Part shown: positions 1 to 20,226 of the stretch, one piece after another | Layout: each line of letters opens with the position of its first letter | How positions within the stretch are numbered: position 1 is the stretch's first letter | From: Escherichia coli | GTDB taxonomy: Bacteria > Pseudomonadota > Gammaproteobacteria > Enterobacterales > Enterobacteriaceae | Assembly (NCBI RefSeq): GCF_003334335.1 | Contig: NZ_QOWQ01000019.1 | DNA: 64,000 nucleotides | Reading direction: 5' to 3' (one strand) | Program-made: the position numbers and the translations under genes | Notes under the pieces: generated by a model | Told to the model about the DNA's origin: nothing | Databases searched by the model: none | The model's input: only the letters and a program-made list of their open reading frames with translations

Positions 1-2116
1 GAGCGAACAGCCGATTCGTTCCGCTTATCTCATTTCCCAGGCTGATTTTGTTGGCTGCCACCAGTTGCAGTTTATCGATAAATATCAGATGGCTGAGCGT
101 TTAAAACCTGGCGGCATTTTCCTGCTCAACACGCCGTACAGCGCAGATGAAGTGTGGTCGCGCTTGCCGCAAGAAGTTCAGGCCGTGTTAAACCAGAAAA
201 AAGCGCGCTTCTATGTGATTAACGCGGCGAAAATCGCCCGCGAATGTGGCCTGGCGGCCCGTATTAATACCGTCATGCAGATGGCTTTTTTCCATCTGAC
301 GCAAATTCTGCCTGGCGATAGCGCCCTCGCAGAATTGCAGGGTGCGATTGCCAAAAGTTACAGTAGCAAAGGCCAGGATCTGGTGGAACGCAACTGGCAG
401 GCTCTGGCGCTGGCGCGTGAATCCGTAGAAGAAGTTCCGTTGCAACCGGTAAATCCGCACAGCGCCAATCGACCGCCAGTGGTTTCCGATGCCGCCCCTG
501 ATTTCGTGAAAACCGTAACCGCTGCGATGCTCGCCGGGCTTGGTGACGCCCTCCCCGTTTCGGCGCTGCCGCCAGACGGCACCTGGCCGATGGGCACTAC
601 GCGCTGGGAAAAACGCAATATCGCCGAAGAGATCCCCATCTTGAAAGAGGAACTCTGTACCCAATGTAACCACTGCGTTGCCGCTTGCCCACACTCAGCT
701 ATTCGCGCAAAAGTGGTGCCGCCTGAAGCGATGGAAAACGCCCCTGCCAGCCTGCATTCGCTGGATGTGAAATCGCGTGATATGCGCGGGCAGAAATATG
801 TCTTGCAGGTGGCACCGGAAGATTGCACCGGTTGTAACCTGTGCGTCGAAGTTTGCCCGGCGAAAGACCGTCAGAATCCAGAGATTAAAGCCATCAATAT
901 GATGTCTCGCCTGGAACATGTCGAAGAAGAGAAAATCAATTACGATTTCTTCCTCAACCTGCCAGAAATCGACCGTAGCAAACTGGAACGTATTGATATT
1001 CGTACATCGCAGCTGATTACACCGCTGTTTGAATATTCAGGTGCTTGCTCCGGTTGTGGCGAGACGCCGTATATTAAATTACTGACTCAGCTCTATGGCG
1101 ACCGGATGTTGATCGCTAACGCCACTGGCTGTTCTTCAATTTATGGCGGTAACCTGCCCTCTACACCGTATACCACCGATGCCAACGGTCGTGGGCCGGC
1201 ATGGGCGAACTCTCTATTTGAAGATAATGCCGAATTTGGCCTTGGTTTCCGCCTGACGGTCGATCAACACCGTGTCCGCGTGCTGCGTCTGCTGGATCAA
1301 TTTGCCGATAAAATCCCGGCGGAATTACTGACGGCGTTGAAATCAGACGCCACGCCAGAGGTTCGTCGTGAACAGGTTGCAGCTTTACGCCAGCAACTCA
1401 ACGATGTTGCCGAAGCACATGAACTGCTACGTGATGCAGATGCACTGGTGGAAAAATCAATCTGGCTGATTGGTGGTGATGGCTGGGCTTACGATATCGG
1501 CTTTGGCGGTCTGGATCATGTATTGAGTTTGACGGAAAACGTCAACATTCTGGTGCTGGATACGCAATGCTATTCCAACACCGGTGGTCAGGCGTCGAAA
1601 GCGACACCGCTGGGTGCAGTAACTAAATTTGGCGAGCACGGCAAACGTAAAGCGCGTAAAGATCTTGGCGTCAGTATGATGATGTACGGTCATGTTTATG
1701 TGGCGCAGATTTCTCTCGGCGCGCAGCTGAACCAGACGGTGAAAGCGATTCAGGAAGCGGAAGCGTATCCGGGGCCATCGCTGATCATTGCTTATAGCCC
1801 GTGTGAAGAGCATGGTTACGATCTGGCACTCAGCCACGACCAGATGCGCCAACTCACAGCTACCGGCTTCTGGCCGCTATATCGCTTTGATCCGCGTCGT
1901 GCCGATGAAGGCAAACTGCCGCTGGCCTTGGATTCACGCCCGCCGTCAGAAGCACTGGAAGAAACGTTACTTCACGAGCAACGTTTCCGTCGGCTGAATT
2001 CGCAGCAGCCAGAAGTGGCAGAACAGTTATGGAAAGATGCTGCAGCTGATTTGCAAAAACGCTATGACTTCCTGGCACAAATGGCCGGAAAAGCGGAAAA
2101 AAGCAACACCGATTAA
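1..2116 (+). CDS. ydbK: pyruvate:flavodoxin oxidoreductase (PFOR), C-terminal part; 5' end lies outside the window
   Basis: Frame is open from position 2 to the stop at 2116; the translation carries two Cys-rich 4Fe-4S ferredoxin motifs (CTQCNHCVAACP, CTGCNLCVEVCP) and a TPP-binding GDGW region typical of PFOR/NifJ; matches recalled E. coli YdbK C-terminus. Confidence 0.9.
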   Translation, partial: SEQPIRSAYLISQADFVGCHQLQFIDKYQMAERLKPGGIFLLNTPYSADEVWSRLPQEVQAVLNQKKARFYVINAAKIARECGLAARINTVMQMAFFHLTQILPGDSALAELQGAIAKSYSSKGQDLVERNWQALALARESVEEVPLQPVNPHSANRPPVVSDAAPDFVKTVTAAMLAGLGDALPVSALPPDGTWPMGTTRWEKRNIAEEIPILKEELCTQCNHCVAACPHSAIRAKVVPPEAMENAPASLHSLDVKSRDMRGQKYVLQVAPEDCTGCNLCVEVCPAKDRQNPEIKAINMMSRLEHVEEEKINYDFFLNLPEIDRSKLERIDIRTSQLITPLFEYSGACSGCGETPYIKLLTQLYGDRMLIANATGCSSIYGGNLPSTPYTTDANGRGPAWANSLFEDNAEFGLGFRLTVDQHRVRVLRLLDQFADKIPAELLTALKSDATPEVRREQVAALRQQLNDVAEAHELLRDADALVEKSIWLIGGDGWAYDIGFGGLDHVLSLTENVNILVLDTQCYSNTGGQASKATPLGAVTKFGEHGKRKARKDLGVSMMMYGHVYVAQISLGAQLNQTVKAIQEAEAYPGPSLIIAYSPCEEHGYDLALSHDQMRQLTATGFWPLYRFDPRRADEGKLPLALDSRPPSEALEETLLHEQRFRRLNSQQPEVAEQLWKDAAADLQKRYDFLAQMAGKAEKSNTD

Positions 2117-2145
2117 ATGCTCTGGATAAGGATTATCCAATTCTA

Positions 2146-2178
2146 AAAAAAAAGCCCGGACGACTGTTCGGGCTTGTC
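2146..2178. terminator. bidirectional rho-independent terminator shared by ydbK and micC
   Basis: A-run, hairpin GCCCGGACGACTGTTCGGGC, then T-rich tract; reads as a terminator on both strands. Confidence 0.7.
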
Positions 2179-2255
2179 TTTTTATATGTTGGAAAATCAG
2201 TGGCAATGCAATGGCCCAACAGAAAATAAAATCTGTGACAATAAAGGCATATAAC
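2146..2255 (-). ncRNA. micC: MicC small regulatory RNA (Hfq-dependent, ompC-targeting)
   Basis: Reverse complement reads GTTATATGCCTTTATTGTCACAGATTTTATTTTCTGTTGGGCCATTGCATTGCCACTGATTTTCCAACATATAAAAAGACAAGCCCGAACAGTCGTCCGGGCTTTTTTT, matching the recalled MicC sequence; sits divergent from ompN as in K-12. Confidence 0.85.
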
Positions 2256-2482
2256 CCGCGCAGAATAACGTATAGCAAATTAAAAGTATAATTTTTATTT
2301 TGTATGTATTATCTTCGATACATTCACCAGACTTATTATCATTTCAGAGGAATTATTTGATTAAGGTTTTACTTAAGGCGTAACAAATGATATTTATCGG
2401 CTAACTGAACTTCTCCTTTAGGATGTTTTCACTCCCCGAAATGGGGATAAAAGGCAAATAAAATAACTAAAGGATTTATTCA

Positions 2483-3616
2483 ATGAAAAGCAAAGTACTG
2501 GCACTTTTAATTCCTGCCCTGCTCGCCGCAGGTGCTGCACATGCAGCCGAAGTTTATAATAAAGACGGCAACAAATTAGATCTGTATGGCAAAGTTGATG
2601 GCCTGCATTATTTTTCTGATAATTCAGCGAAAGATGGCGACCAGAGCTATGCGCGTCTGGGTTTTAAAGGCGAAACCCAAATTAACGATCAACTCACTGG
2701 CTACGGTCAATGGGAATACAATATTCAGGCAAACAACACTGAATCTTCAAAAAACCAGTCATGGACCCGTCTGGCATTTGCCGGGCTGAAATTTGCAGAT
2801 TACGGTTCTTTCGATTACGGACGTAATTATGGCGTAATGTACGACATCGAAGGCTGGACCGATATGCTGCCTGAATTTGGCGGTGACTCTTATACCAATG
2901 CAGACAACTTTATGACTGGTCGAGCCAATGGCGTCGCGACTTATCGTAATACTGATTTCTTCGGTCTGGTAAATGGTCTGAACTTCGCGGTGCAGTATCA
3001 AGGTAACAACGAAGGAGCCAGTAATGGTCAGGAAGGCACCAACAACGGACGTGATGTTCGCCATGAAAACGGTGACGGCTGGGGTCTTTCCACAACATAT
3101 GATTTAGGCATGGGCTTTAGCGCTGGTGCGGCATACACCTCTTCTGACCGCACCAATGACCAGGTTAACCATACTGCGGCGGGTGGTGATAAAGCAGACG
3201 CGTGGACTGCTGGGCTAAAATACGATGCTAACAATATTTACCTGGCAACCATGTATTCAGAAACGCGTAATATGACCCCGTTTGGCGACAGCGATTATGC
3301 TGTGGCAAACAAAACCCAGAATTTTGAAGTCACTGCACAGTACCAGTTTGATTTTGGTCTGCGTCCGGCAGTCTCTTTCCTGATGTCTAAAGGCCGTGAC
3401 CTGCACGCTGCGGGTGGTGCAGACAACCCGGCAGGTGTTGATGATAAAGATCTGGTTAAATACGCCGATATTGGCGCGACTTACTATTTCAATAAAAACA
3501 TGTCCACCTACGTTGACTATAAAATCAACCTGTTGGATGAAGATGACAGCTTCTACGCTGCCAATGGCATCTCTACCGATGATATTGTCGCTTTAGGTCT
3601 GGTTTATCAGTTCTAA
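2483..3616 (+). CDS. ompN: outer membrane porin N (OmpC/OmpF family)
   Basis: 377 aa; signal peptide [21 protein letters not shown]; C-terminal ...LVYQF porin signature; matches recalled OmpN. Confidence 0.92.
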
Positions 3617-3624
3617 ATCCTCCT

Positions 3625-3650
3625 GCCCGCTGTTATGGCGGGCTTTTTCT
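3625..3650 (+). terminator. rho-independent terminator after ompN
   Basis: Hairpin GCCCGC-tgttatg-GCGGGC followed by TTTTT. Confidence 0.6.
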
Positions 3651-3675
3651 GCTTATTCTTCCTCCTTTGATCTAA

Positions 3676-4191
<516 letters not shown>

Positions 4192-4198
4192 CACTAAC

Positions 4199-4224
4199 GC
4201 CCGCACATTGCTGCGGGCTTTTTG
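4199..4224 (+). terminator. rho-independent terminator after uspF
   Basis: Hairpin GCCCGCA-cattgc-TGCGGGC followed by TTTTT. Confidence 0.6.
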
Positions 4225-4367
4225 ATTCATTTCGCAAATGTGCTGACATTTTCCCCTCTAATCCGTACCATACACGCCACAGTTTTTTATATCAGATTTC
4301 TTATGCTGGGCGTTCCGGCATGACGCATACTCTTCTGATGCCATATAACGAATTGAGTCGCTTTTAA

Positions 4368-5303
4368 ATGTCGCAAAATCAAGAAATTAGTAAGAAAGAA
4401 CAATACAACCTGAACAAATTACAAAAACGTCTGCGTCGTAACGTGGGCGAAGCCATTGCTGACTTCAATATGATTGAAGAAGGCGATCGCATCATGGTTT
4501 GCCTCTCCGGGGGTAAAGACAGCTATACCATGCTGGAGATTCTGCGCAATTTGCAGCAAAGCGCGCCAATCAATTTTTCGCTGGTGGCTGTTAACCTCGA
4601 TCAAAAGCAACCGGGCTTCCCGGAACACGTTCTGCCCGAGTATCTTGAAAAGCTGGGCGTTGAGTACAAGATTGTTGAAGAGAATACTTACGGTATCGTG
4701 AAAGAGAAGATTCCAGAGGGCAAAACCACTTGCTCACTGTGTTCTCGCCTTCGTCGCGGTATCCTTTATCGTACCGCAACGGAACTGGGGGCGACGAAGA
4801 TCGCGTTGGGTCACCATCGTGACGATATCCTGCAAACGTTGTTCTTAAATATGTTCTACGGCGGTAAGATGAAAGGTATGCCTCCGAAACTGATGAGCGA
4901 TGATGGCAAACATATCGTTATTCGTCCGCTGGCCTACTGCCGCGAGAAAGATATTCAGCGATTTGCCGATGCAAAAGCGTTCCCGATTATTCCGTGCAAC
5001 CTGTGCGGTTCACAGCCTAACCTGCAACGTCAGGTGATTGCTGACATGTTGCGTGACTGGGATAAACGTTATCCAGGGCGTATCGAGACGATGTTCAGCG
5101 CGATGCAGAATGTGGTGCCGTCGCATCTGTGCGATACCAACCTGTTCGATTTCAAAGGCATCACCCACGGTTCTGAAGTGGTTAACGGGGGTGATCTGGC
5201 GTTTGATCGCGAAGAGATCCCACTACAACCGGCGTGCTGGCAGCCAGAAGAAGATGAAAATCAGTTGGATGAGTTACGGCTGAATGTGGTTGAAGTGAAA
5301 TAA
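4368..5303 (+). CDS. ttcA: tRNA 2-thiocytidine(32) synthetase
   Basis: 311 aa; PP-loop SGGKDS motif and CxxC pairs; N-terminus [56 protein letters not shown] matches recalled TtcA. Confidence 0.92.
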
Positions 5304-5312
5304 CCAGGATAG

Positions 5313-5383
5313 CGCCCGATGCGCAAGCGTATCGGGCTACTCTTATGGAGGCCGGATAAGACGCGGCCAGCGTCGCATCCGGC
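5313..5383. repeat. REP (repetitive extragenic palindromic) pair between ttcA and dbpA
   Basis: GCCCGATGCGCAAGCGTATCGGGC and GCCGGATAAGACGCGGCCAGCGTCGCATCCGGC, typical REP palindromes. Confidence 0.6.
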
Positions 5384-5431
5384 AATCCCGAATAAGATGT
5401 TTACTCTTGCACCCGGCAATTCAACATTTCA

Positions 5432-6805
5432 TTATTTTAATAACCGCACCCGGCACGTTTTTCCTTTAATCTTCCCGCCCTGTAACTGTTTCCATGCTTT
5501 ATGAGCAACAGCCTGACGGACCGCGACATAGACATGCGCCGGATGCACGGCGATTTTGCCAATATCTGCGCCATCAAGCCCGATATCTCCTGTCAGTGCA
5601 CCTAATACATCACCCGGGCGCATTTTGGCTTTTTTCCCGCCATCGATACACAACGTTGCCATTTCTGCTTCCAGCGTCGCAATGGAACTATTAGCTGGCG
5701 GCGTTTGCCAGTTAAGTTTTATCTGCAACATGTCAGAAATGATATTGGCCCGCTGTGCTTCTTCCGGAGCACAGAAACTGATCGCCAGACCGCTATTTCC
5801 TGCACGAGCTGTACGACCGATGCGATGTACATGAACTTCAGGGTCCCACGCCAGCTCAAAGTTCACCACCAGCTCAAGCGATTTAATATCCAGACCACGC
5901 GCAGCAACATCAGTCGCGACCAGTACACGGGCGCTACCGTTAGCAAAACGTACCAGGGTCTGATCGCGATCGCGTTGCTCCAAATCGCCGTGTAATGACA
6001 ATGCACTTTGCCCTACTTCATTCAGCGCGTCGCAGACAGCCTGGCAATCTTTTTTGGTATTGCAAAACACCACGCAAGAGGATGGCTGATGCAAGCTTAA
6101 TAACCGTTGCAACAGAGGAATTTTGCCTTTGCTGGATGTCTCATAAAATTGTTGTTCAATGGGTGGCAAAGCATCTGTTGAGTCAATTTCAATCGCCAAA
6201 GGATCGCGTTGCACTCGTCCGCTGATTGCAGCGATGGCTTCCGGCCAGGTTGCCGAAAACAGAAGCGTCTGTCGAGATGCAGGCGCAAAACGGATGACAT
6301 CATCAATGGCATCGCTAAATCCCATATCCAGCATGCGGTCGGCCTCATCCATCACCAGCGTATTCAACGCATCCAGTGATACCGTGCCTTTTTGCAGGTG
6401 ATCCAGCAAACGCCCCGGCGTTGCCACGATAATATGCGGCGCATGTTGCAACGAATCACGCTGCATACCGAACGGTTGACCACCGCACAACGTCAAAATT
6501 TTGGTATTTGGCAGAAAACGCGCCAGCCGACGCAATTCACCTGCCACCTGATCCGCCAGTTCACGCGTAGGACACAGCACTAAAGCCTGGGTTTGAAATA
6601 GCGACGCATCAATTTGCTGTAACAAGCCGAGGCCAAAAGCCGCCGTTTTGCCGCTGCCGGTTTTCGCCTGCACGCGAACATCTTTTCCGGCAAGGATCGC
6701 CGGAAGCGCGGCGGCCTGCACCGGCGTCATGGTTAAATAACCCAACTCATTAAGGTTCGTGAGTTGGGCGGGAGGCAAAACATTCAGGGTAGAAAAAGCG
6801 GTCAC
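5432..6805 (-). CDS. dbpA: ATP-dependent RNA helicase DbpA (DEAD-box, 23S rRNA-specific)
   Basis: 457 aa; GTG start at 6805; Walker A AKTGSGKT, DEAD box, SAT motif; matches recalled DbpA N-terminus (M)TAFSTLNVLPPAQLTNLNELGY. Confidence 0.93.
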   Translation of the reverse strand: MTAFSTLNVLPPAQLTNLNELGYLTMTPVQAAALPAILAGKDVRVQAKTGSGKTAAFGLGLLQQIDASLFQTQALVLCPTRELADQVAGELRRLARFLPNTKILTLCGGQPFGMQRDSLQHAPHIIVATPGRLLDHLQKGTVSLDALNTLVMDEADRMLDMGFSDAIDDVIRFAPASRQTLLFSATWPEAIAAISGRVQRDPLAIEIDSTDALPPIEQQFYETSSKGKIPLLQRLLSLHQPSSCVVFCNTKKDCQAVCDALNEVGQSALSLHGDLEQRDRDQTLVRFANGSARVLVATDVAARGLDIKSLELVVNFELAWDPEVHVHRIGRTARAGNSGLAISFCAPEEAQRANIISDMLQIKLNWQTPPANSSIATLEAEMATLCIDGGKKAKMRPGDVLGALTGDIGLDGADIGKIAVHPAHVYVAVRQAVAHKAWKQLQGGKIKGKTCRVRLLK

Positions 6806-6834
6806 AATCTATTCTCGTGGTCATCGACGCAAAG

Positions 6835-7008
6835 TTAGCAGGCGCGTATCCTCGCAGATCTACGCTCACGATGCGACAATTTAATCGGTTCTTCATCGGG
6901 TGGTGGGTCAGGCATGGGTTGCGGGCGAGGGATCGGATCGGGCACTGGAACAGGATCGCCAGGAATCGGTTCAGGGACAGGAATTTGCAAATAAATAAGT
7001 GTCGTCAT
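6835..7008 (-). CDS. candidate small proline-rich protein (57 aa), not in the supplied ORF track
   Basis: ATG at 7008 preceded by GAGGGA; translation MTTLIYLQIPVPEPIPGDPVPVPDPIPRPQPMPDPPPDEEPIKLSHRERRSARIRAC; alternating Pro codons with varied third positions; stop 29 bp upstream of dbpA on the same strand. Confidence 0.3.
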   Translation of the reverse strand: MTTLIYLQIPVPEPIPGDPVPVPDPIPRPQPMPDPPPDEEPIKLSHRERRSARIRAC

Positions 7009-7065
7009 ATTTCCCTCTGGTCATTGGGTGGACTCTTAAAGGGTAGACGCTGATAAATAACAGGC

Positions 7066-7187
7066 AAAAAAAAGCCGACTCATCAAAGTCGGCGTCGTAC
7101 GAATCAATTGTGCTATGCAGTAATTCAAAAAAGGAAGTAAGACAATATGGAGCGCAACGCCCATCGCTTGACGTTGCATTCACCTGC
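7066..7187 (-). ncRNA. fnrS: FnrS small RNA (FNR-activated, Hfq-dependent)
   Basis: Reverse complement reads GCAGGTGAATGCAACGTCAAGCGATGGGCGTTGCGCTCCATATTGTCTTACTTCCTTTTTTGAATTACTGCATAGCACAATTGATTCGTACGACGCCGACTTTGATGAGTCGGCTTTTTTTT, matching recalled FnrS; intrinsic terminator at the 3' end. Confidence 0.85.
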
Positions 7188-7222
7188 AAGAGAGATATTG
7201 CCCTGAATGGGTAGAGAGTTTA

Positions 7223-7236
7223 TTGACTTCGCTCAA
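7223..7236 (-). promoter_or_regulatory. FNR-box-like site upstream of fnrS
   Basis: Minus strand TTGAGCGAAGTCAA resembles the FNR consensus TTGAT-N4-ATCAA, about 40 bp upstream of the fnrS 5' end. Confidence 0.55.
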
Positions 7237-7282
7237 ACTTTGCGGCGTTTTTGTATACAGACAGCCGGAAAAATTGCTTTTG

Positions 7283-8287
<1,005 letters not shown>

Positions 8288-8520
8288 TTATTTTGTAGTC
8301 TAGCCTTCTGGCCCTGTTACGCAACATCTCATCACCCCATTACCCTGAAATGATTAATAAAATTCTGTCTAAATTGAATACAAAAAGCAAAATGCTTTTC
8401 CGTATACAAACCGTGTGAAGTGTTAAATAGCGTCTATCATTATCAGAATTATCTGATCATATGACGTGGCTTTTTTGCGATCGGATAGCAACAAAAATTG
8501 ATAAAAATAACGGGATCTCA

Positions 8521-9753
8521 ATGATTACGCACAACTTCAATACCCTGGACTTACTCACCAGTCCTGTCTGGATCGTTTCGCCCTTTGAGGAACAGTTAAT
8601 TTATGCCAATAGCGCGGCGAAACTGTTGATGCAAGACCTCACGTTTAGTCAGCTACGAACCGGACCCTATTCCGTCTCCTCACAAAAAGAACTGCCGAAA
8701 TACCTCTCCGATCTGCAAAACCAACACGATATTATCGAAATCCTCACTGTTCAGCGTAAAGAAGAGGAAACAGCATTGAGCTGTCGGCTTGTTTTGCGAA
8801 AGCTGACAGAAACAGAACCGGTGATTATTTTCGAAGGTATCGAAGCGCCGGCAACGCTGGGTTTAAAAGCCAGTCGCTCGGCAAATTATCAGCGCAAAAA
8901 ACAAGGTTTTTATGCGCGCTTTTTTCTGACTAACTCTGCACCAATGTTGTTGATTGACCCGTCACGAGATGGACAAATCGTCGATGCTAACCTCGCCGCG
9001 CTCAATTTCTATGGTTATAACCATGAAACGATGTGCCAGAAACATACCTGGGAAATAAATATGCTCGGGCGTCGCGTCATGCCTATCATGCATGAAATCT
9101 CGCATTTACCCGGTGGTCATAAACCTTTGAATTTTGTTCATAAACTGGCGGATGGTTCGACTCGTCATGTGCAGACCTATGCCGGACCGATTGAAATTTA
9201 TGGCGACAAGCTCATGTTATGTATTGTGCATGATATTACTGAGCAAAAACGGCTGGAGGAGCAGCTGGAACATGCTGCTCACCATGACGCGATGACCGGA
9301 TTACTGAATCGGCGACAGTTTTATCACATTACGGAACCAGGCCAAATGCAGCATCTCGCCATCGCTCAGGATTACAGCTTGTTGCTCATCGACACCGATC
9401 GTTTTAAACACATTAACGATCTCTATGGGCATTCTAAAGGTGATGAGGTGTTATGCGCCCTCGCCCGCACCCTCGAAAGTTGCGCTCGCAAAGGCGATTT
9501 GGTGTTTCGTTGGGGAGGCGAAGAGTTTGTCTTATTGCTACCAAGAACCCCACTGGATACCGCGCTTTCGCTGGCTGAAACTATCCGCGTAAGCGTGGCA
9601 AAAGTGAGTATTTCGGGCTTACCACGCTTTACCGTCAGCATTGGTGTGGCGCATCACGAAGGAAATGAAAGCATCGATGAACTGTTTAAACGCGTTGATG
9701 ATGCTTTGTATCGGGCGAAAAATGATGGACGCAACCGCGTGCTGGCGGCATAA
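8521..9753 (+). CDS. dgcM: diguanylate cyclase DgcM (PAS + GGDEF)
   Basis: 410 aa from ATG 8521; N-terminus MITHNFNTLDLL matches recalled DgcM (YdaM); GGEEF active-site motif in RWGGEEFVLL; the track ORF from 8461 is an upstream extension. Confidence 0.88.
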   Translation: MITHNFNTLDLLTSPVWIVSPFEEQLIYANSAAKLLMQDLTFSQLRTGPYSVSSQKELPKYLSDLQNQHDIIEILTVQRKEEETALSCRLVLRKLTETEPVIIFEGIEAPATLGLKASRSANYQRKKQGFYARFFLTNSAPMLLIDPSRDGQIVDANLAALNFYGYNHETMCQKHTWEINMLGRRVMPIMHEISHLPGGHKPLNFVHKLADGSTRHVQTYAGPIEIYGDKLMLCIVHDITEQKRLEEQLEHAAHHDAMTGLLNRRQFYHITEPGQMQHLAIAQDYSLLLIDTDRFKHINDLYGHSKGDEVLCALARTLESCARKGDLVFRWGGEEFVLLLPRTPLDTALSLAETIRVSVAKVSISGLPRFTVSIGVAHHEGNESIDELFKRVDDALYRAKNDGRNRVLAA

Positions 9754-9773
9754 GCCGCGGATGCGTCTCGAGA

Positions 9774-10337
9774 TCAACGACTGCGCTTAGCGTGGCGCTC
9801 CCAGTTTTCTTGCTTCGCCTGCGCCGTTTTACGTAGTGCGACGTAACACGCCCCGCTGCCGCCATGATGCGGTAGCGCGGTGCAATATGCCTGAACATCA
9901 TCAAATTCGGTCAGCCAGCGCGCCACATAGCTGCGGACAATATTGGCATGCGATTTATCATCCCGCCCTTTACCATGAATAATCAGCACGTTACGCAAAC
10001 CATCCGCCAGGGCTTGTTGAATAAAACTGAACACCATTTTGCGGCACTCTTCCACCGGCTGGCGCAAAAGATTCAGGCTCGCCTGTTGCGGATATTTACC
10101 ACTGCGCAGCTTATCCAGCACCCCATGTTGCAACCCTTCCCGCCGAAACTCCAGCGGCTGACTTAGTGGGATGATGTCGAGAAATCCGGTGGTGAGGAAA
10201 TTATCAAGCTGCAGCGTGTCGATACGCTGCGGCGCACGTTGGTTACGCGTTGGATGCCAGTGGACATCGGTAGCACGTTTCAGCGGCTGGACATCTTCCA
10301 TGGCGTCAAGAAACAGCGATTTGTCGTCAAGGTTCAT
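9774..10337 (-). CDS. smrA: Smr-domain DNA endonuclease SmrA
   Basis: 187 aa; N-terminus MNLDDKSLFLDAMEDVQPLKRA matches recalled YdaL/SmrA; Smr-like LIIHGKGRDDKS segment. Confidence 0.85.
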   Translation of the reverse strand: MNLDDKSLFLDAMEDVQPLKRATDVHWHPTRNQRAPQRIDTLQLDNFLTTGFLDIIPLSQPLEFRREGLQHGVLDKLRSGKYPQQASLNLLRQPVEECRKMVFSFIQQALADGLRNVLIIHGKGRDDKSHANIVRSYVARWLTEFDDVQAYCTALPHHGGSGACYVALRKTAQAKQENWERHAKRSR

Positions 10338-10564
10338 GTTACATCCTCCCGCAATTAAGAGCGCGATATGATAACCAGACCGGGTCGGTCCAACAACGTA
10401 TTACCCAAATTTCCAGTAATAAGTTCCAAATATTGCCGATATTTTAAGCAAAATACTTATGCATGATTATTCATTCACGATATTAATAATGTAACTTATA
10501 TTTTCGTGAAATCTGTCACTGAAGAAAATTGGCAACTAAAGGTTAAAACCGTTATAACACAGTC

Positions 10565-10659
10565 ACCGGCGCAGAGGAGACAATGCCGGATTTAAGACGC
10601 GGATGCACTGCTGTGTGTACTGTAGAGTCTGGCGGATGTCGACAGACTCTATTTTTTTA
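10565..10659 (+). ncRNA. mcaS: McaS (IsrA) small RNA
   Basis: ACCGGCGCAGAGGAGACAATGCCGGATTTAAGACGCGGATGCACTGCTGTGTGTACTGTAGAGTCTGGCGGATGTCGACAGACTCTATTTTTTT matches recalled McaS; ends in a hairpin plus T-run abutting the abgR stop. Confidence 0.8.
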
Positions 10660-10666
10660 TGCAGTT

Positions 10667-11575
10667 TTAACTTTGCAGATAGCCGCATTCTCGCCGGAAT
10701 TGCGTGATTAATGACGCGGTCAGTGGTGTCTGGCGACTATCACGCCGCTGAATCAAATAATAGGCCGCTTTCGGTAAAATTTCGCTAACCGGCAACATCA
10801 CCAGCCCCTGTCCGTGCAAGGGATCGCAGCCCATTTCTTCAGGCAGTATGCTGAGAAAATCGCTTTTTGCCACCAGACTGATACAGGCTGAGAACGTCTC
10901 GCAGACTACACCGACCTGTGGCGTTTGCGCCTGATCGTCAAGCAATTCACTCAACTGTTTGTAGTAGCTGCCGTGTGGCGTCGGCATTGTCCAGCTGTAA
11001 TCCAGTAACTGTTTGATCGAACGGGCACCAATGGCGGGGTGTCCCGGGCGGCAAAAGATCGCGAATTGCTTTTCCAGTAATTTCTCAAAAGTAAATTCGT
11101 GGTCGTACGGTCCCTGATAATAGGTATTGATGGTGAAATCCAATTCTCCCTGACGCAATTCATTAATCATCGACACCAGTTGCCCTTCCATAATGCGTAC
11201 TTTTACCTGCGGATGCTGCTGATGAAAACGAGATATGACAGCTGGCATCAGACTGCGGGAAATACTGGCCCCCATGCCGATATTAATCTGCCCTGCCAGT
11301 TGCCCTTGTCGTTGGCGAATATCCTCTTGGGCTGCGCGCAGCTCTTCAAGAATTAGACTGGCGTGCTGATAAAAACTTTCACCGGCATCAGTTAACGTCA
11401 CGCCTTTACTACGGCGAAAAAAGAGTTGCGCCGCTAACCCTTCTTCTAGCTCCTGAATAGATTTACTCAGTGCCGGTTGCGACATATTCAACATTCGGCT
11501 CGCTCCGCGAATGCTGCCCTGACGAGCCACTTCAACAAAAGCCCGAATTTGATGAATTTTTACCTGAAAAGCCAT
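10667..11575 (-). CDS. abgR: LysR-family transcriptional regulator AbgR
   Basis: 302 aa; N-terminal HTH (QIRAFVEVARQGSIRGASRMLNMSQPALSKSIQELE); divergent from abgABT. Confidence 0.88.
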   Translation of the reverse strand: MAFQVKIHQIRAFVEVARQGSIRGASRMLNMSQPALSKSIQELEEGLAAQLFFRRSKGVTLTDAGESFYQHASLILEELRAAQEDIRQRQGQLAGQINIGMGASISRSLMPAVISRFHQQHPQVKVRIMEGQLVSMINELRQGELDFTINTYYQGPYDHEFTFEKLLEKQFAIFCRPGHPAIGARSIKQLLDYSWTMPTPHGSYYKQLSELLDDQAQTPQVGVVCETFSACISLVAKSDFLSILPEEMGCDPLHGQGLVMLPVSEILPKAAYYLIQRRDSRQTPLTASLITQFRRECGYLQS

Positions 11576-11750
11576 GACGCCACCGATAACCGTTATTTAT
11601 CAGACCAAAGAAACTGGCATCTACTTTAATGCAGATGATTGTGTCAGGGTAATTTATGAACGGTTAAAACTGTGAAAAATCAGTTAGTGATAAGTAAAAA
11701 CTATCGCTACGTGAACCGGGTCACACTTTTTACTGATGACGGGAAAGGTT

Positions 11751-13061
11751 ATGGAGTCTTTGAATCAATTTGTTAATTCGCTTGCCCCAAAATTATCGCA
11801 CTGGCGACGTGATTTTCATCACTATGCAGAGTCTGGCTGGGTGGAATTCCGCACTGCCACCCTTGTTGCGGAAGAATTGCACCAGCTCGGCTATTCACTG
11901 GCGCTGGGTCGCGAAGTAGTTAATGAAAGTAGCCGGATGGGATTACCTGATGAATTCACTCTACAACGCGAATTCGAGCGCGCTCGTCAACAGGGTGCGC
12001 TAGCACAATGGATTGCGGCTTTTGAAGGTGGTTTCACTGGTATCGTCGCCACCCTGGATACCGGTCGCCCCGGTCCGGTGATGGCTTTCCGTGTCGATAT
12101 GGACGCGCTGGATCTCAGTGAAGAGCAGGATGTCAGCCATCGCCCCTACCGCGACGGTTTTGCGTCATGTAACGCCGGAATGATGCATGCCTGTGGTCAT
12201 GATGGACATACCGCCATTGGGCTTGGGCTGGCGCATACCCTTAAACAGTTCGAGTCCGGACTACATGGCGTCATCAAACTGATTTTTCAGCCTGCAGAGG
12301 AAGGTACGCGTGGCGCGCGGGCGATGGTCGATGCAGGTGTCGTAGATGATGTTGATTATTTTACTGCCGTGCACATTGGCACTGGCGTACCTGCGGGCAC
12401 CGTGGTGTGCGGCAGTGATAATTTTATGGCAACCACCAAATTTGACGCGCACTTCACCGGTACCGCCGCTCACGCAGGCGCAAAACCAGAAGACGGTCAC
12501 AATGCCTTGTTGGCGGCAGCACAAGCCACTCTTGCACTGCATGCAATCGCCCCGCACAGCGAAGGAGCTTCCAGAGTAAACGTGGGCGTTATGCAGGCAG
12601 GAAGCGGTCGTAACGTTGTTCCTGCCTCGGCGTTGCTGAAAGTGGAAACACGCGGGGCCAGCGACGTCATTAATCAATATGTTTTTGACCGTGCACAACA
12701 AGCGATTCAGGGCGCAGCAACCATGTATGGTGTCGGCGTTGAAACTCGTCTGATGGGTGCAGCTACCGCCAGTTCTCCTTCGCCGCAATGGGTCGCATGG
12801 TTGCAAAGTCAGGCGGCTCAGGTCGCGGGGGTCAATCAGGCCATTGAACGTGTTGAAGCGCCTGCGGGTTCCGAAGATGCCACATTAATGATGGCCCGCG
12901 TGCAGCAACATCAAGGGCAAGCCTCCTACGTGGTGTTTGGCACACAGCTGGCGGCAGGTCATCACAACGAAAAATTCGATTTTGACGAGCAGGTTCTCGC
13001 TATTGCCGTCGAAACGCTGGCGCGCACCGCGCTCAATTTTCCCTGGACGCGAGGTATCTGA
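11751..13061 (+). CDS. abgA: p-aminobenzoyl-glutamate hydrolase subunit A (M20 peptidase)
   Basis: 436 aa from ATG 11751 (MESLNQFVNSL matches recalled AbgA); the track ORF begins 5 codons upstream. Confidence 0.88.
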   Translation: MESLNQFVNSLAPKLSHWRRDFHHYAESGWVEFRTATLVAEELHQLGYSLALGREVVNESSRMGLPDEFTLQREFERARQQGALAQWIAAFEGGFTGIVATLDTGRPGPVMAFRVDMDALDLSEEQDVSHRPYRDGFASCNAGMMHACGHDGHTAIGLGLAHTLKQFESGLHGVIKLIFQPAEEGTRGARAMVDAGVVDDVDYFTAVHIGTGVPAGTVVCGSDNFMATTKFDAHFTGTAAHAGAKPEDGHNALLAAAQATLALHAIAPHSEGASRVNVGVMQAGSGRNVVPASALLKVETRGASDVINQYVFDRAQQAIQGAATMYGVGVETRLMGAATASSPSPQWVAWLQSQAAQVAGVNQAIERVEAPAGSEDATLMMARVQQHQGQASYVVFGTQLAAGHHNEKFDFDEQVLAIAVETLARTALNFPWTRGI

Positions 13062-14506
13062 TGCAGGAAATCTATCGTTTTATCGACGATGCGATTGAAG
13101 CCGATCGCCAACGTTATACCGATATTGCCGATCAAATCTGGGATCATCCAGAAACACGTTTTGAAGAGTTCTGGTCAGCGGAGCATCTGGCTTCGGCGCT
13201 GGAATCTGCAGGCTTCACCGTTACCCGCAACGTAGGCAATATCCCAAATGCCTTTATTGCTTCGTTTGGTCAAGGCAAACCGGTTATCGCCCTGCTGGGA
13301 GAATATGACGCCCTGGCAGGTTTAAGTCAGCAAGCAGGTTGCGCGCAACCTACATCCGTGACGCCCGGTGAAAATGGTCACGGTTGCGGACACAATTTGC
13401 TGGGAACCGCCGCCTTTGCCGCTGCAATAGCCGTCAAGAAATGGCTGGAACAATATGGGCAAGGCGGCACGGTGCGCTTTTATGGTTGTCCTGGCGAAGA
13501 AGGCGGCTCGGGTAAAACGTTCATGGTTCGCGAGGGGGTATTTGATGATGTGGATGCGGCACTCACCTGGCACCCGGAAGCCTTTGCCGGTATGTTCAAT
13601 ACCCGCACGCTGGCAAACATTCAGGCATCATGGCGCTTTAAAGGGATCGCAGCACATGCCGCGAATTCCCCTCATTTGGGACGCAGCGCCCTTGATGCCG
13701 TAACGTTGATGACCACTGGCACCAACTTCCTCAACGAACATATTATTGAAAAAGCGCGCGTACACTATGCCATCACAAATAGCGGCGGGATCTCGCCCAA
13801 CGTGGTCCAGGCGCAGGCAGAAGTGCTTTATCTTATCCGCGCCCCCGAAATGACCGACGTGCAGCATATTTATGATCGGGTCGCCAAAATCGCCGAAGGT
13901 GCGGCATTGATGACCGAAACCACGGTTGAATGCCGCTTCGACAAAGCCTGTTCCAGTTATCTCCCGAATCGCACCTTAGAAAATGCCATGTACCAGGCCC
14001 TATCCCATTTTGGTACCCCGGAATGGAACTCCGAAGAACTGGCTTTTGCGAAACAAATTCAGGCTACGCTCACCTCCAACGATCGGCAAAACAGTCTGAA
14101 TAATATCGCCGCAACCGGTGGCGAAAACGGCAAGGTTTTTGCACTACGTCATCGTGAAACGGTACTGGCGAATGAAGTCGCTCCATATGCCGCCACCGAT
14201 AACGTGCTTGCGGCATCGACTGATGTCGGCGACGTCAGTTGGAAACTGCCTGTTGCCCAGTGTTTCAGCCCCTGTTTTGCCGTCGGTACACCGCTACATA
14301 CGTGGCAACTGGTTAGCCAGGGGCGAACATCTATTGCTCATAAAGGAATGCTGCTGGCGGCGAAAACTATGGCAGCAACCACAGTCAATCTCTTCCTTGA
14401 TTCAGGGCTATTGCAAGAATGCCAACAAGAGCATCAGCAAGTAACGGACACGCAACCGTATCACTGCCCTATCCCGAAAAACGTGACACCGTCACCTTTA
14501 AAATAA
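13061..14506 (+). CDS. abgB: p-aminobenzoyl-glutamate hydrolase subunit B (M20 peptidase)
   Basis: 481 aa; start overlaps the abgA stop (TGATG); N-terminus MQEIYRFIDDAIEADRQRYTDIADQIWDHPE. Confidence 0.9.
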   Translation: MQEIYRFIDDAIEADRQRYTDIADQIWDHPETRFEEFWSAEHLASALESAGFTVTRNVGNIPNAFIASFGQGKPVIALLGEYDALAGLSQQAGCAQPTSVTPGENGHGCGHNLLGTAAFAAAIAVKKWLEQYGQGGTVRFYGCPGEEGGSGKTFMVREGVFDDVDAALTWHPEAFAGMFNTRTLANIQASWRFKGIAAHAANSPHLGRSALDAVTLMTTGTNFLNEHIIEKARVHYAITNSGGISPNVVQAQAEVLYLIRAPEMTDVQHIYDRVAKIAEGAALMTETTVECRFDKACSSYLPNRTLENAMYQALSHFGTPEWNSEELAFAKQIQATLTSNDRQNSLNNIAATGGENGKVFALRHRETVLANEVAPYAATDNVLAASTDVGDVSWKLPVAQCFSPCFAVGTPLHTWQLVSQGRTSIAHKGMLLAAKTMAATTVNLFLDSGLLQECQQEHQQVTDTQPYHCPIPKNVTPSPLK

Positions 14507-14542
14507 CAACAACAACGCAAACACAACAACCGAGGAATGCCC

Positions 14543-16069
14543 ATGAGTATGTCATCCATACCGTCGTCCTCCCAATCCGGGAAGCTCTATGGCTGGGTCG
14601 AAAGAATTGGTAACAAGGTTCCCCATCCTTTTCTGCTCTTTATCTATTTGATTATCGTACTCATGGTGACGACGGCAATTTTGTCGGCCTTTGGCGTCAG
14701 TGCGAAAAACCCGACCGATGGTACGCCGGTCGTGGTGAAAAACCTGCTCAGTGTGGAAGGATTACACTGGTTTTTACCCAATGTTATTAAAAACTTTAGC
14801 GGTTTTGCTCCACTTGGTGCGATCCTGGCGCTGGTTTTAGGTGCCGGTCTGGCGGAGCGCGTCGGCTTACTGCCAGCACTAATGGTTAAAATGGCATCGC
14901 ATGTTAATGCCCGCTACGCCAGTTATATGGTGCTGTTTATTGCTTTTTTCAGCCACATTTCTTCCGATGCGGCGTTAGTGATCATGCCACCGATGGGTGC
15001 GCTGATTTTTCTGGCGGTGGGCAGGCATCCAGTTGCAGGTTTACTGGCTGCCATTGCAGGCGTAGGTTGCGGCTTTACGGCTAATTTACTGATTGTCACA
15101 ACCGACGTGTTGCTGTCGGGGATCAGCACGGAAGCGGCAGCTGCGTTCAATCCGCAAATGCACGTCAGTGTAATTGATAACTGGTATTTTATGGCCAGCT
15201 CCGTAGTCGTACTGACGATTGTTGGCGGCCTGATAACCGACAAAATCATCGAGCCACGGTTAGGTCAATGGCAGGGAAACAGCGATGAGAAACTGCAGAC
15301 ATTGACCGAAAGTCAGCGTTTTGGTTTACGCATAGCAGGTGTCGTATCGCTACTTTTTATTGCTGCGATTGCGCTGATGGTGATCCCGCAAAACGGGATA
15401 TTGCGCGATCCGATTAATCACACCGTGATGCCATCACCCTTTATTAAAGGTATCGTGCCACTGATCATTCTTTTTTTCTTTGTTGTCTCGCTGGCTTATG
15501 GCATCGCTACCCGCACAATTCGACGTCAGGCGGATTTACCGCATTTAATGATTGAACCGATGAAAGAGATGGCGGGATTTATCGTGATGGTTTTTCCCCT
15601 CGCCCAATTTGTCGCCATGTTTAACTGGAGCAACATGGGGAAATTCATCGCCGTGGGGCTGACCGATATACTGGAAAGTTCAGGGCTTAGCGGCATCCCG
15701 GCGTTTGTCGGTCTGGCGTTGCTTTCCTCTTTCTTATGCATGTTTATTGCCAGCGGTTCCGCAATCTGGTCGATTCTTGCCCCCATTTTCGTACCAATGT
15801 TTATGCTACTTGGCTTTCACCCGGCATTTGCGCAAATCCTCTTTCGTATTGCCGACTCATCCGTATTGCCTTTAGCGCCGGTATCTCCTTTTGTTCCACT
15901 GTTTCTTGGATTCCTGCAACGCTACAAACCAGACGCGAAACTGGGTACTTACTATTCGTTAGTCTTGCCCTATCCACTTATCTTTTTGGTGGTATGGCTG
16001 CTGATGTTGCTGGCGTGGTATCTTGTCGGTCTGCCGATAGGTCCGGGTATTTACCCACGTTTGTCTTAA
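14543..16069 (+). CDS. abgT: p-aminobenzoyl-glutamate transporter (AbgT family)
   Basis: 508 aa from ATG 14543 ([23 protein letters not shown] matches recalled AbgT); multi-pass membrane protein. Confidence 0.88.
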
Positions 16070-16079
16070 GAGAGAACGG

Positions 16080-16595
16080 ATGCTGAGATTACTTGAAGAA
16101 AAAATTGCCACGCCACTGGGTCCACTGTGGGTGATTTGCGATGAGCAATTTCGCCTGCGGGCGGTTGAATGGGAAGAGTACAGCGAACGCATGGTGCAGC
16201 TGCTGGACATCCATTATCGCAAAGAAGGCTATGAGCGCATTTCTGCCACCAATCCAGGCGGTTTAAGCGACAAGCTTCGTGAATATTTTGCCGGTAATCT
16301 TAGCATTATTGATACGCTTCCCACTGCTACGGGGGGGACGCCATTTCAGCGCGAAGTCTGGAAAACACTACGCACTATCCCCTGCGGGCAGGTAATGCAT
16401 TACGGCCAACTGGCTGAGCAATTGGGCCGTCCTGGCGCGGCGCGTGCCGTTGGTGCGGCAAACGGATCGAATCCCATCAGCATCGTCGTACCTTGCCATC
16501 GGGTTATTGGCCGAAACGGCACCATGACCGGATATGCAGGCGGAGTTCAGCGAAAAGAGTGGTTATTGCGCCATGAAGGTTATCTTTTGCTGTAA
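16080..16595 (+). CDS. ogt: O6-methylguanine-DNA methyltransferase
   Basis: 171 aa; active-site PCHRV motif; N-terminus [26 protein letters not shown] matches recalled Ogt. Confidence 0.9.
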
Positions 16596-16756
16596 ACATT
16601 AAACAATTTGTGCCAGCTTGTTCACACTTTTATGTAAAGTTACCCTTAACAACTTAAGGGTTTTCAAATAGATAGACATATATTTACATCTAATATCGGA
16701 ATTCTCTGCTGTTAAGGTTTGCTTAGACTTACTTGCTCCCTAAAAAGATGTTAAAA

Positions 16757-16770
16757 TTGACAAATATCAA
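16757..16770 (+). promoter_or_regulatory. FNR box in the fnr promoter (autoregulatory site)
   Basis: TTGACAAATATCAA is a near-perfect match to TTGAT-N4-ATCAA, about 20 bp upstream of the fnr ATG. Confidence 0.55.
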
Positions 16771-16789
16771 TTACGGCTTGAGCAGACCT

Positions 16790-17542
16790 ATGATCCCGGA
16801 AAAGCGAATTATACGGCGCATTCAGTCTGGCGGTTGTGCTATCCATTGCCAGGATTGCAGCATCAGCCAGCTTTGCATCCCGTTCACACTCAACGAACAT
16901 GAGCTTGATCAGCTTGATAATATCATTGAGCGGAAGAAGCCTATTCAGAAAGGCCAGACGCTGTTTAAGGCTGGTGATGAACTTAAATCGCTTTATGCCA
17001 TCCGCTCCGGTACGATTAAAAGTTATACCATCACTGAGCAAGGCGACGAGCAAATCACTGGTTTCCATTTAGCAGGCGACCTGGTGGGATTTGACGCCAT
17101 CGGCAGCGGCCATCACCCGAGCTTCGCGCAGGCGCTGGAAACCTCGATGGTATGTGAAATCCCGTTCGAAACGCTGGACGATTTGTCCGGTAAAATGCCG
17201 AATCTGCGTCAGCAGATGATGCGTCTGATGAGCGGTGAAATCAAAGGCGATCAGGACATGATCCTGCTGTTGTCGAAGAAAAATGCCGAGGAACGTCTGG
17301 CTGCATTCATCTACAACCTGTCCCGTCGTTTTGCCCAACGCGGCTTCTCCCCTCGTGAATTCCGCCTGACGATGACTCGTGGCGATATCGGTAACTATCT
17401 GGGCCTGACGGTAGAAACCATCAGCCGTCTGCTGGGTCGCTTCCAGAAAAGCGGCATGCTGGCAGTCAAAGGTAAATACATCACCATCGAAAATAACGAT
17501 GCGCTGGCCCAGCTTGCTGGTCATACGCGTAACGTTGCCTGA
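16790..17542 (+). CDS. fnr: fumarate/nitrate reduction global regulator FNR (CRP/FNR family)
   Basis: 250 aa from ATG 16790; N-terminus [43 protein letters not shown] with the Cys cluster of the Fe-S sensor; the track ORF from 16733 is an upstream extension. Confidence 0.95.
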
Positions 17543-17693
17543 TTTTTCCGCATAACTCACTATCCTTCTGTCATATCATTAAATTTTTCTGATTTATTGA
17601 TCTGGCAGAAGGTTCATCACTGTTTCATTCACCAGATATGGGTTAATCTTTTAATTACAAACTGCGTTGACAGTTGTTGTAAGGAGACCCTGT

Positions 17694-18644
17694 ATGGCTA
17701 TGTATCAGAACATGCTCGTTGTTATCGATCCTAACCAGGACGACCAACCAGCATTGCGGCGAGCTGTTTATTTACATCAACGGATTGGTGGCAAAATTAA
17801 AGCCTTTTTGCCGATCTATGACTTCTCATACGAAATGACCACCCTGCTCTCCCCGGACGAACGTACCGCTATGCGTCAGGGCGTCATCAGCCAGCGTACA
17901 GCCTGGATCCACGAGCAGGCAAAATATTATCTCAATGCTGGCGTTCCCATTGAAATTAAAGTGGTCTGGCATAACCGTCCTTTCGAAGCCATCATTCAGG
18001 AAGTGATCAGCGGCGGACACGATTTGGTGCTAAAAATGGCGCACCAACATGACCGTCTGGAAGCGGTGATTTTTACGCCAACGGACTGGCATCTGTTACG
18101 CAAATGCCCAAGCCCGGTGTGGATGGTGAAAGACCAGCCGTGGCCGGAAGGAGGCAAGGCGCTGGTGGCGGTGAATCTCGCCAGTGAAGAGCCGTATCAT
18201 AATGCGCTCAATGAAAAACTGGTCAAAGAGACGATCGAACTGGCAGAACAAGTCAACCATACCGAAGTTCATCTGGTTGGCGCTTATCCGGTAACGCCAA
18301 TTAATATCGCGATTGAACTGCCGGAATTTGACCCGAGCGTTTATAACGATGCCATTCGTGGGCAACATTTGCTGGCAATGAAAGCCCTGCGGCAGAAATT
18401 CGGCATTAATGAAAACATGACGCACGTAGAAAAAGGTCTGCCAGAAGAGGTGATTCCTGATTTGGCGGAGCACTTACAGGCGGGGATTGTGGTTCTGGGC
18501 ACGGTAGGACGCACCGGTATTTCAGCAGCATTCCTCGGCAACACGGCGGAACAGGTGATTGATCATCTTCGCTGCGACCTGCTGGTCATTAAACCTGACC
18601 AGTATCAGACACCCGTTGAACTGGATGACGAAGAAGACGATTAA
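17694..18644 (+). CDS. uspE: universal stress protein E (tandem Usp domains)
   Basis: 316 aa from ATG 17694 preceded by AAGGAG; [17 protein letters not shown] matches recalled UspE. Confidence 0.9.
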
Positions 18645-18664
18645 CGACTCTTCAATAACTGACA

Positions 18665-18691
18665 AGGCCCGAGTTATCGGGCCTATTTTTT
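18665..18691. terminator. hairpin terminator between convergent uspE and ynaJ
   Basis: AGGCCCGA-gtta-TCGGGCCT followed by ATTTTTT. Confidence 0.5.
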
Positions 18692-18693
18692 AC

Positions 18694-18951
18694 TTACTGC
18701 TCTTCGCCGCCAAGGAAATAAATTCCCAACGGGATTGCCAGCAACACAGTAAAGACCAGGCTATAAACAAAAATCATCGATGACTGAATCACATACATTG
18801 ATGTCGTCCACTCAGACAGCGGAATATTGTACTGTTCTATAACGCCGCCGATGGTCGCGCGAGTCACAACCGACGCCGCAATAATGAAAACCGCCAACAA
18901 ACCAAAGAGAAATTTCTTCCCTTTCGCTGACTTCAGTTTCGCCATAATCAT
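18694..18951 (-). CDS. ynaJ: small inner-membrane protein YnaJ (DUF2534)
   Basis: 85 aa; two predicted transmembrane segments; N-terminus MIMAKLKSAKGKKFLFGLLAVFIIAASV matches recalled YnaJ. Confidence 0.8.
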   Translation of the reverse strand: MIMAKLKSAKGKKFLFGLLAVFIIAASVVTRATIGGVIEQYNIPLSEWTTSMYVIQSSMIFVYSLVFTVLLAIPLGIYFLGGEEQ

Positions 18952-19194
18952 GATGTAATCCTTGTGCAGACAAATTTCTTGTTACCTAAACGTAACAATA
19001 CCATGACATTTCACCGTTGTCTGCTCTGAAAACCTCACCTCTTAGCTGGATTTACAATCAACGCATTGATTAGTTAGCTAATGTTGCTACTTCCTTCCCT
19101 GACTATTGATGATCTGAATGAATTGTCGCGGTAAAATAGCCCCGCCAGGGGTTTCCGGCATGACGACAATTATCTGGAGGAGCCTGATAAAACA

Positions 19195-20226
19195 ATGATC
19201 GCTGAACTGTTTACAAATAATGCGCTTAATCTGGTCATTATTTTCGGTAGCTGCGCAGCATTGATTCTGATGAGCTTTTGGTTTCGCCGTGGAAATCGTA
19301 AAAGAAAAGGATTTTTATTCCATGCGGTGCAATTTTTAATCTACACCATAATTATCAGTGCTGTTGGTAGCATTATTAATTATGTTATAGAAAACTATAA
19401 ACTCAAATTTATCACCCCAGGCGTTATCGATTTTATCTGTACGTCCCTGATTGCGGTTATTCTGACGATTAAGCTATTTCTGCTGATTAATCAGTTTGAA
19501 AAACAGCAGATTAAAAAAGGTCGCGATATCACCAGTGCGCGGATTATGTCGCGTATCATCAAAATCACCATTATTGTGGTGCTTGTTCTGCTTTATGGCG
19601 AACATTTCGGCATGAGCCTTTCTGGCTTGCTGACCTTTGGTGGTATTGGTGGTCTGGCTGTCGGTATGGCCGGTAAAGATATTCTGAGTAACTTCTTTTC
19701 CGGGATTATGCTCTATTTCGACCGTCCTTTCAGTATTGGCGACTGGATCCGTTCACCGGACAGAAATATCGAAGGTACAGTAGCGGAAATTGGCTGGCGA
19801 ATTACCAAAATTACGACCTTTGATAATCGTCCATTGTACGTACCGAACTCGCTGTTTTCGTCGATCAGCGTAGAAAACCCAGGACGAATGACCAACCGCC
19901 GCATTACCACGACCATTGGTTTACGTTATGAGGATGCGGCAAAAGTGGGCGTTATTGTCGAAGCTGTACGTGAGATGCTGAAAAATCACCCGGCCATCGA
20001 CCAGCGACAAACCTTACTGGTTTATTTCAACCAGTTTGCTGACTCTTCATTGAATATTATGGTTTATTGCTTTACCAAAACCACGGTATGGGCTGAATGG
20101 CTTGCTGCACAGCAAGACGTTTATTTGAAGATTATCGATATTGTACAGTCACACGGCGCGGACTTTGCCTTCCCCAGCCAGACGCTGTATATGGATAACA
20201 TTACACCGCCGGAACAGGGTCGCTAA
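19195..20226 (+). CDS. ynaI: MscS-family mechanosensitive channel YnaI
   Basis: 343 aa; N-terminal transmembrane helices followed by an MscS-like beta domain; position next to ynaJ as in K-12. Confidence 0.88.

Follow-up and report, generated by a model that had tools for sequence, protein, structure and literature searches.

An empty Rac-family attachment site in the 5' coding region of ttcA in a natural Escherichia coli strain

Genes and intergenic features of the uspF-ttcA-dbpA locus

The window, as we call the whole 64,000-nucleotide stretch of E. coli DNA analysed here, carries ttcA, the gene for tRNA 2-thiocytidine(32) synthetase, at positions 4368-5303 of the plus strand, where the list of open reading frames gives 311 codons with an ATG start. 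A preliminary description of this DNA had reported a full 311-codon ttcA, and this was confirmed by comparison with the NCBIfam equivalog NF007972, which the product matched over its full length with 513.5 bits (cut-off 272). Residues 47-52 of the protein form the PP-loop SGGKDS, and the CxxC motif occurs twice, as CSLC at residues 122-125 and as CNLC at residues 210-213. The CxxC cysteines of TtcA bind an Fe-S cluster. The open reading frame 4368-5303 is thus identified as TtcA, with s2C32-forming activity as its predicted function.

On the left of ttcA lies uspF (3757-4191, plus strand), which encodes the universal stress protein F of 144 amino acids (NCBIfam NF011581, 302 bits, cut-off 166, full length). 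This gene is collinear with uspF of K-12 and is the host gene to the left of the empty attachment site described below. A terminator-like stem-loop with a T-run after it, GCCCGCACATTGCTGCGGGC then TTTTTG, was found 3' of uspF at 4199-4224 (plus strand) on the basis of a consensus match only. The intergenic spacer between uspF and ttcA (4192-4367, plus strand) comprises 176 bp and is 100% identical to the K-12 spacer between uspF and the pseudogene ttcC, and comparison with K-12 revealed no phage remnant within it. The stretch 4192-4367 is the native upstream region of ttcA and presumably holds its promoter, from which ttcA is probably transcribed in this strain; a promoter scan of the spacer returned nothing above chance, with one weak sigma-70-like match at 4243-4271.

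On the other side, ttcA is followed by the convergent gene dbpA (5432-6805, minus strand), which encodes an ATP-dependent RNA helicase of 457 amino acids (NCBIfam NF008744, 770.6 bits, cut-off 524) and is likewise collinear with K-12. The preliminary description had noted about 130 bp of REP-containing spacer and then dbpA, in agreement with the 128-bp intergenic spacer observed at 5304-5431, which shows zero mismatches to K-12. A canonical REP element, GCCGGATGCGACGCTGGCCGCGTCTTATCCGGCC, occupies 5350-5383 on the minus strand and coincides with inverted repeat I1. The REP consensus was taken as GCCKGATGCGRCGY...RCGYCTTATCMGGCC, an imperfect palindrome with a variable loop and at most one substitution per half-site. 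A search with a fixed-gap form of this consensus gave no match, and the variable-loop regular expression found the element at 5350-5383, with 0 matches in 50 shuffles and with an intergenic position between convergent genes. A shorter imperfect palindrome, GCCCGATGCGC / GCGTATCGGGC, corresponding to inverted repeat I2, lies at 5314-5337 (no strand assigned); its 11-nt arms are 91% complementary and it fails the strict REP consensus. In its fit to the consensus and its location between convergent genes, 5350-5383 resembles the REP/BIME repeats of E. coli, a class of repeats unconnected to Rac, whereas 5314-5337 is REP-like only.

Rfam searches returned nothing in 4368-5431 and, elsewhere in the window, only the expected small RNAs MicC, FnrS and McaS, all of them above the Rfam gathering scores. 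The genes of these RNAs are at their expected K-12 positions, namely 2138-2258 (minus strand), 7070-7187 (minus strand) and 10565-10660 (plus strand), respectively. An apparent in-frame stop in ydbK/pfo, suggested by a listed start at position 65, was rejected as an artefact of the listing of open reading frames, given that translation yields an open frame from the start of the window.

Comparison with K-12 and position of the attachment core

In a megablast comparison in which the K-12 side consisted of three fetched pieces of MG1655, the window corresponded to the reverse complement of K-12 from about 1,439,375 down to 1,351,194, with approximately 99.95% identity. Between window 1-63921 and MG1655 we found two structural differences, the absence of Rac and the absence of IS5F, together with about 20 SNPs and one 1-nt indel in 60 kb. 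IS5F lies between ynaI and ynaJ in MG1655, and its empty TTAG target is at 19074-19077 in the window. The ycjV gene is intact in the window as an open reading frame of 360 codons (33215-34297, minus strand); in MG1655, which is without one C (window 33343), it is broken up into two pseudogenes, ycjV and ymjB. At its right-hand end (63922-64000) the window matches the opening 79 nt of IS186 (IS186A of K-12, 15388-15466) with 100% identity. This IS186 end is a third structural difference from MG1655 and the only additional mobile-element DNA in the window, and it sits in the fabI-ycjD intergenic region right after a G/C-rich run, where MG1655 has no insertion sequence.

According to the annotation of MG1655, the gene order is dbpA (plus strand), ttcA (minus strand), intR (minus strand) and then xisR onward, so that the 23-kb Rac prophage stands between ttcA and uspF. 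The annotated Rac feature (1411899-1434958; 23,060 bp) overlaps the first 50 nt of ttcA, and the 51-nt pseudogene ttcC is found at the far end of Rac, adjoining uspF. Because the annotated prophage overlaps the ttcA start and ttcC stands next to uspF, Rac is integrated in the 5' part of ttcA, on the side that faces uspF and away from dbpA, and ttcC represents the native gene start that was displaced. The preliminary description, which had placed Rac at the opposite, 3' end of the gene beside dbpA, was mistaken on this point.

In order to bound the attachment core, window 4280-4520 was aligned with both K-12 junctions and identity was walked in from each side. Up to 4417 the window followed the uspF/ttcC junction (attR side) without a difference, and from 4392 on it did the same with the intR/ttcA junction (attL side). 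The overlap defines a 26-bp block, AAGAAAGAACAATACAACCTGAACAA, at 4392-4417 (plus strand), which is the core of the unoccupied Rac attachment site (attB), corresponds to nt 25-50 of the ttcA coding sequence (codons 9-17) and is identical among K-12 attL, K-12 attR and the window. Over the longer alignment of window 1-4417 with K-12 1439375-1434959, 2 mismatches only were observed, at 642 and 1956. The core has one match in the 64 kb even when up to 3 mismatches are allowed, with 0 expected by chance, and 2 copies in K-12, which coincide with the two annotated ends of Rac. In the window, the left arm (uspF, spacer and codons 1-8) is contiguous across the core with the right arm, the body of ttcA. 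The alignment against the K-12 Rac junctions, which had been proposed as a check, thus gave a divided answer: the core lies elsewhere than in the 3' spacer, and 4392-4417 is nonetheless still inside the interval 4368-5431 that had been singled out.

The statement that the locus holds no integrase, phage genes or att duplication withstood this comparison. Window 1-63921 aligns collinearly to K-12 DNA from outside prophages, which leaves no gene for an integrase or excisionase and no other prophage sequence beside the site, and the single copy of the Rac att core means that no att duplication exists within the 64-kb window. The claimed prophage-free state of the Rac locus was likewise borne out by the position of uspF 176 bp upstream, by the native first 8 codons of ttcA and by the presence of one core.

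Both K-12 junctions also allowed us to delimit the native 5' arm of ttcA, codons 1-8 (MSQNQEIS), at 4368-4391 of the plus strand. The window and K-12 ttcA genes differ by 7 nt, all located in nt 4-24 of the coding sequence, and the resulting protein changes from the window to K-12 are S2Q, Q3E, E6Q and S8T, the rest of TtcA being identical. The window N-terminus MSQNQEIS is of the ttcC/TtcA' type; K-12 ttcA has MQENQQIT, and in K-12 the native codons 1-8 remain solely as the start of the ttcC pseudogene. As judged from these alignments, the K-12 MQENQQIT segment is a phage-supplied mimic of the native ttcA 5' end, and the gene in the window probably encodes the ancestral TtcA' isoform.

Occupied and empty sites in other genomes and phages

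The region 3600-5500 of the window was uninterrupted in 2,488 of 5,426 complete E. coli genomes (about 46%). In the remaining genomes the match breaks off at window position 4375, shortly after the ttcA start, as the phage-supplied mimic is too divergent there. The full K-12-type intR-ttcA junction was present in 1,879 of the 5,426 genomes, and others keep just a truncated integrase. The occupied genomes examined singly have intR or an intR fragment directly 5' of ttcA. In strain O111:H8 08-4455, for example, recE, recT, ralR, xisR and intR are found directly 5' of ttcA. In LF82 (NZ_CP082771.1, locus 1756-3942), the gap between uspF and ttcA holds a prophage remnant only, in which a sit permease gene with a frameshift is accompanied by fragments of a DUF1627 gene and, over 231 nt, of an integrase gene. 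The 26-bp core was found just once at the LF82 locus, and the remnant is therefore no longer able to excise site-specifically.

The natural isolate BA92 (NZ_CP176406.1, 2652000-2700000, locus 5300-31300) carries a Rac-like prophage of about 26 kb with sitABCD next to uspF, and over the host flanks it shares 100% (left) and 99.96% (right) identity with the window. When K-12 and BA92 were compared, the int-proximal 11.3 kb of prophage that they share differed by 0.53%, whereas the adjacent host DNA differed by 0.03%; prophage divergence is thus about 18 times flank divergence, and the distal halves of the two prophages are different. Occupancy of the site is thus polymorphic, and these divergence values suggest a turnover of prophages at the ttcA site among strains with near-identical flanks.

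With regard to the 3' side of ttcA, the match between the window and each of the occupied genomes sampled runs without a break from 4375, across the 3' spacer and into dbpA. The spacer is 100% identical and of equal length in Rac-bearing K-12, and it also measures 128 bp in occupied O111:H8, LF82 and BA92. Because it is unchanged in occupied genomes, the ttcA-dbpA spacer is uninformative on occupancy, and its shortness, which had been offered as evidence of emptiness, loses that value. The 3' spacer is outside the Rac attachment site and has no part in Rac integration; that it is free of any phage remnant, as the preliminary description required, agrees with the alignment of 5304-5431 without mismatch to a K-12 counterpart lying outside the Rac junctions. 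The placement of the Rac site at the ttcA 3' end, within or close to the REP spacer that separates it from dbpA, had in its favour the preliminary description and the fact that the flagged interval spans the true core, and it is refuted by both K-12 junctions mapping to the ttcA 5' end by annotation and alignment, the spacer unaltered in sequence in K-12 and in length in the other three occupied genomes, and the unbroken match of the sampled occupied genomes.

Free phages of the Rac family provided a second view of the core. In Rac-SA53 (KU052037) and vB_EcoS-683R6 (ON470595), intR is followed by the ttcA 5' mimic and then by the core. The KU052037 record bears a 26-bp attP annotated by its depositors at the same ttcA position. 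This attP (KU052037.1, 1601-1626), AAGAAAGAGATATACAACCTGAACAA, has 3 internal differences from the core of K-12 and the window, and because of these differences the true crossover segment may be the right-hand approximately 15 bp of the core, ATACAACCTGAACAA. A search with a reconstructed K-12 attP returned no phage record contiguous over both K-12 Rac arms, and phage similarity to it ended exactly at the end of the core. As no phage match extends past the core, the right-hand Rac arm of K-12 differs from that of its sequenced inducible relatives.

These results can be set against previous work. Liu et al. (2015, Sci Rep 5:16074; PMC4632033) have shown that Rac lies between ttcA and ttcC', with attL inside the ttcA coding region, and that its excision from K-12 alters four N-terminal residues to give TtcA'. 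The same study reported that E. coli and Shigella strains in which Rac is naturally absent have the N-terminus of TtcA', regarded by the authors as the ancient form, that CP-933R and Sp10 use the ttcA site of Rac, and that TtcA and TtcA' differ phenotypically (PMC4632033). With the attB of delta-rac K-12 (PMC4632033), the window shares the gene, the N-terminal coding position, residues 2, 3, 6 and 8, and the flanking uspF and dbpA. Unlike delta-rac K-12, in which Rac was excised experimentally, the window is known from sequence alone and represents a natural non-K-12 background without IS5F, with an intact ycjV and with an extra IS186. CP-933R of EDL933, Sp10 of Sakai, Rac-SA53 and vB_EcoS-683R6 share with the window the same ttcA 5' site, and they have in common an IntR-type tyrosine integrase and a mimic next to intR; they represent the occupied or free-phage state, whereas the window is an empty bacterial site without their DNA.

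History and meaning of the empty site

Taken together, the region 4368-5431 is, with a confidence close to certainty, an ordinary ttcA with its 3' REP spacer, in which a Rac-family attB lies empty in the 5' coding region of the gene, and nothing in the sequence speaks against this reading. Recombination by the phage tyrosine integrase IntR is the known mechanism of Rac integration, and 4392-4417 is the likely IntR integration target, for which the 1,879 genomes with an intR-ttcA junction at this position give indirect support. Upon integration of a Rac-like phage, the crossover takes place somewhere inside the 26-bp block, and the phage brings a near-copy of ttcA codons 1-8, located just upstream of its core and next to intR. 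Because the phage carries this near-copy, ttcA keeps its whole length in the lysogen and differs at four N-terminal residues, and the native first 17 codons end up about 23 kb away as the ttcC pseudogene beside uspF. A comparable arrangement is known from icd, inside which lambdoid elements such as phage 21 and e14 integrate: the att core is within the coding sequence, the element brings a near-duplicate of the displaced gene end that keeps the gene functional, and the opposite junction retains a pseudogene fragment. The two systems differ in that the 3' end is replaced in icd, whereas in ttcA the 5' end and the upstream region are replaced by Rac. In the window, where uspF, the native spacer, the native codons 1-8, a single core and the ttcA body are contiguous, integration has either never happened or been exactly reversed. 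The diagnostic features of the empty site are uspF 176 bp upstream of ttcA, one core and the native N-terminus MSQNQEIS.

Three origins for this empty state were weighed. The very high identity to MG1655 and the clean absence of both Rac and IS5F are what an engineered or cured laboratory K-12 derivative (e.g., a delta-rac or reduced-genome strain) would present, and such an origin is nevertheless very improbable in view of the about 20 SNPs and single 1-nt indel in 60 kb, of an intact ycjV where K-12 is frameshifted, of an IS186 at a position that is empty in MG1655 and of the 100% identity between window 1-20000 and many natural isolates, which are of pig, human, dog and seawater origin. The window comes from a natural strain with a near-K-12 sequence at the ttcA locus, and not from K-12 itself.

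According to a second explanation, the site is secondarily empty, an ancestral Rac-like prophage having been lost by precise IntR/XisR excision that restored attB and TtcA'. K-12 and BA92 have flanks 99.95-100% identical to the window and yet both carry Rac-like prophages, and excision of Rac from K-12 leaves exactly the sequence of the window (PMC4632033), both of which would fit such a loss. Precise excision is scarless, however, so that its sequence is the same as that of a never-occupied site, and the divergence between the K-12 and BA92 prophages over their shared 11.3 kb, set against that of their host DNA and combined with their different distal halves, points to turnover or independent acquisition and not to one ancestral prophage. 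We regard a secondary loss as a genuine possibility, though not as the probable course of events.

The third explanation holds that the site was never occupied, that the window preserves the ancestral empty state and that K-12 and BA92 acquired their prophages separately. It is consistent with the native N-terminus, which is that of the ancient TtcA of Liu et al. (PMC4632033), with the 46% of complete E. coli genomes that are uninterrupted here and with the roughly 18-fold excess of prophage over flank divergence between K-12 and BA92. Against it, the K-12 Rac prophage is heavily decayed, is without most structural genes and contains an IS5 insertion, all of which point to a long residence, and yet in their host flanks K-12 and the window are separated by just the few SNPs and the one indel given above. 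On balance, the chances that the site was never occupied are about even.

A further and more far-reaching proposal is that site occupancy works as a switch on tRNA thiolation that is reversible and operated by the phage, the site in the window having been emptied by recent excision in a K-12-like lineage. We consider this proposal rather doubtful. If it were true, integration and excision would swap the upstream region and four TtcA residues back and forth, and near-identical strains, such as the window compared with K-12 and BA92, would differ in TtcA expression or activity by prophage state alone. The novelty would then be confined to recurrent switching at the population level, since the TtcA/TtcA' phenotype has already been described (PMC4632033).

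Whatever its origin, the empty Rac site with an ancestral TtcA N-terminus is a real, ordinary, common and already published state of a well-studied locus, and its biological importance is accordingly small. For the study of Rac-like prophages in E. coli genomes, it means that screens should examine the interval from uspF to ttcA together with ttcA codons 1-17, and not the ttcA-dbpA spacer. The TtcA N-terminus can serve there as a quick marker, in which MSQNQEIS indicates an empty site, and MQENQQIT or a similar phage-supplied N-terminus indicates an occupied site or a remnant.
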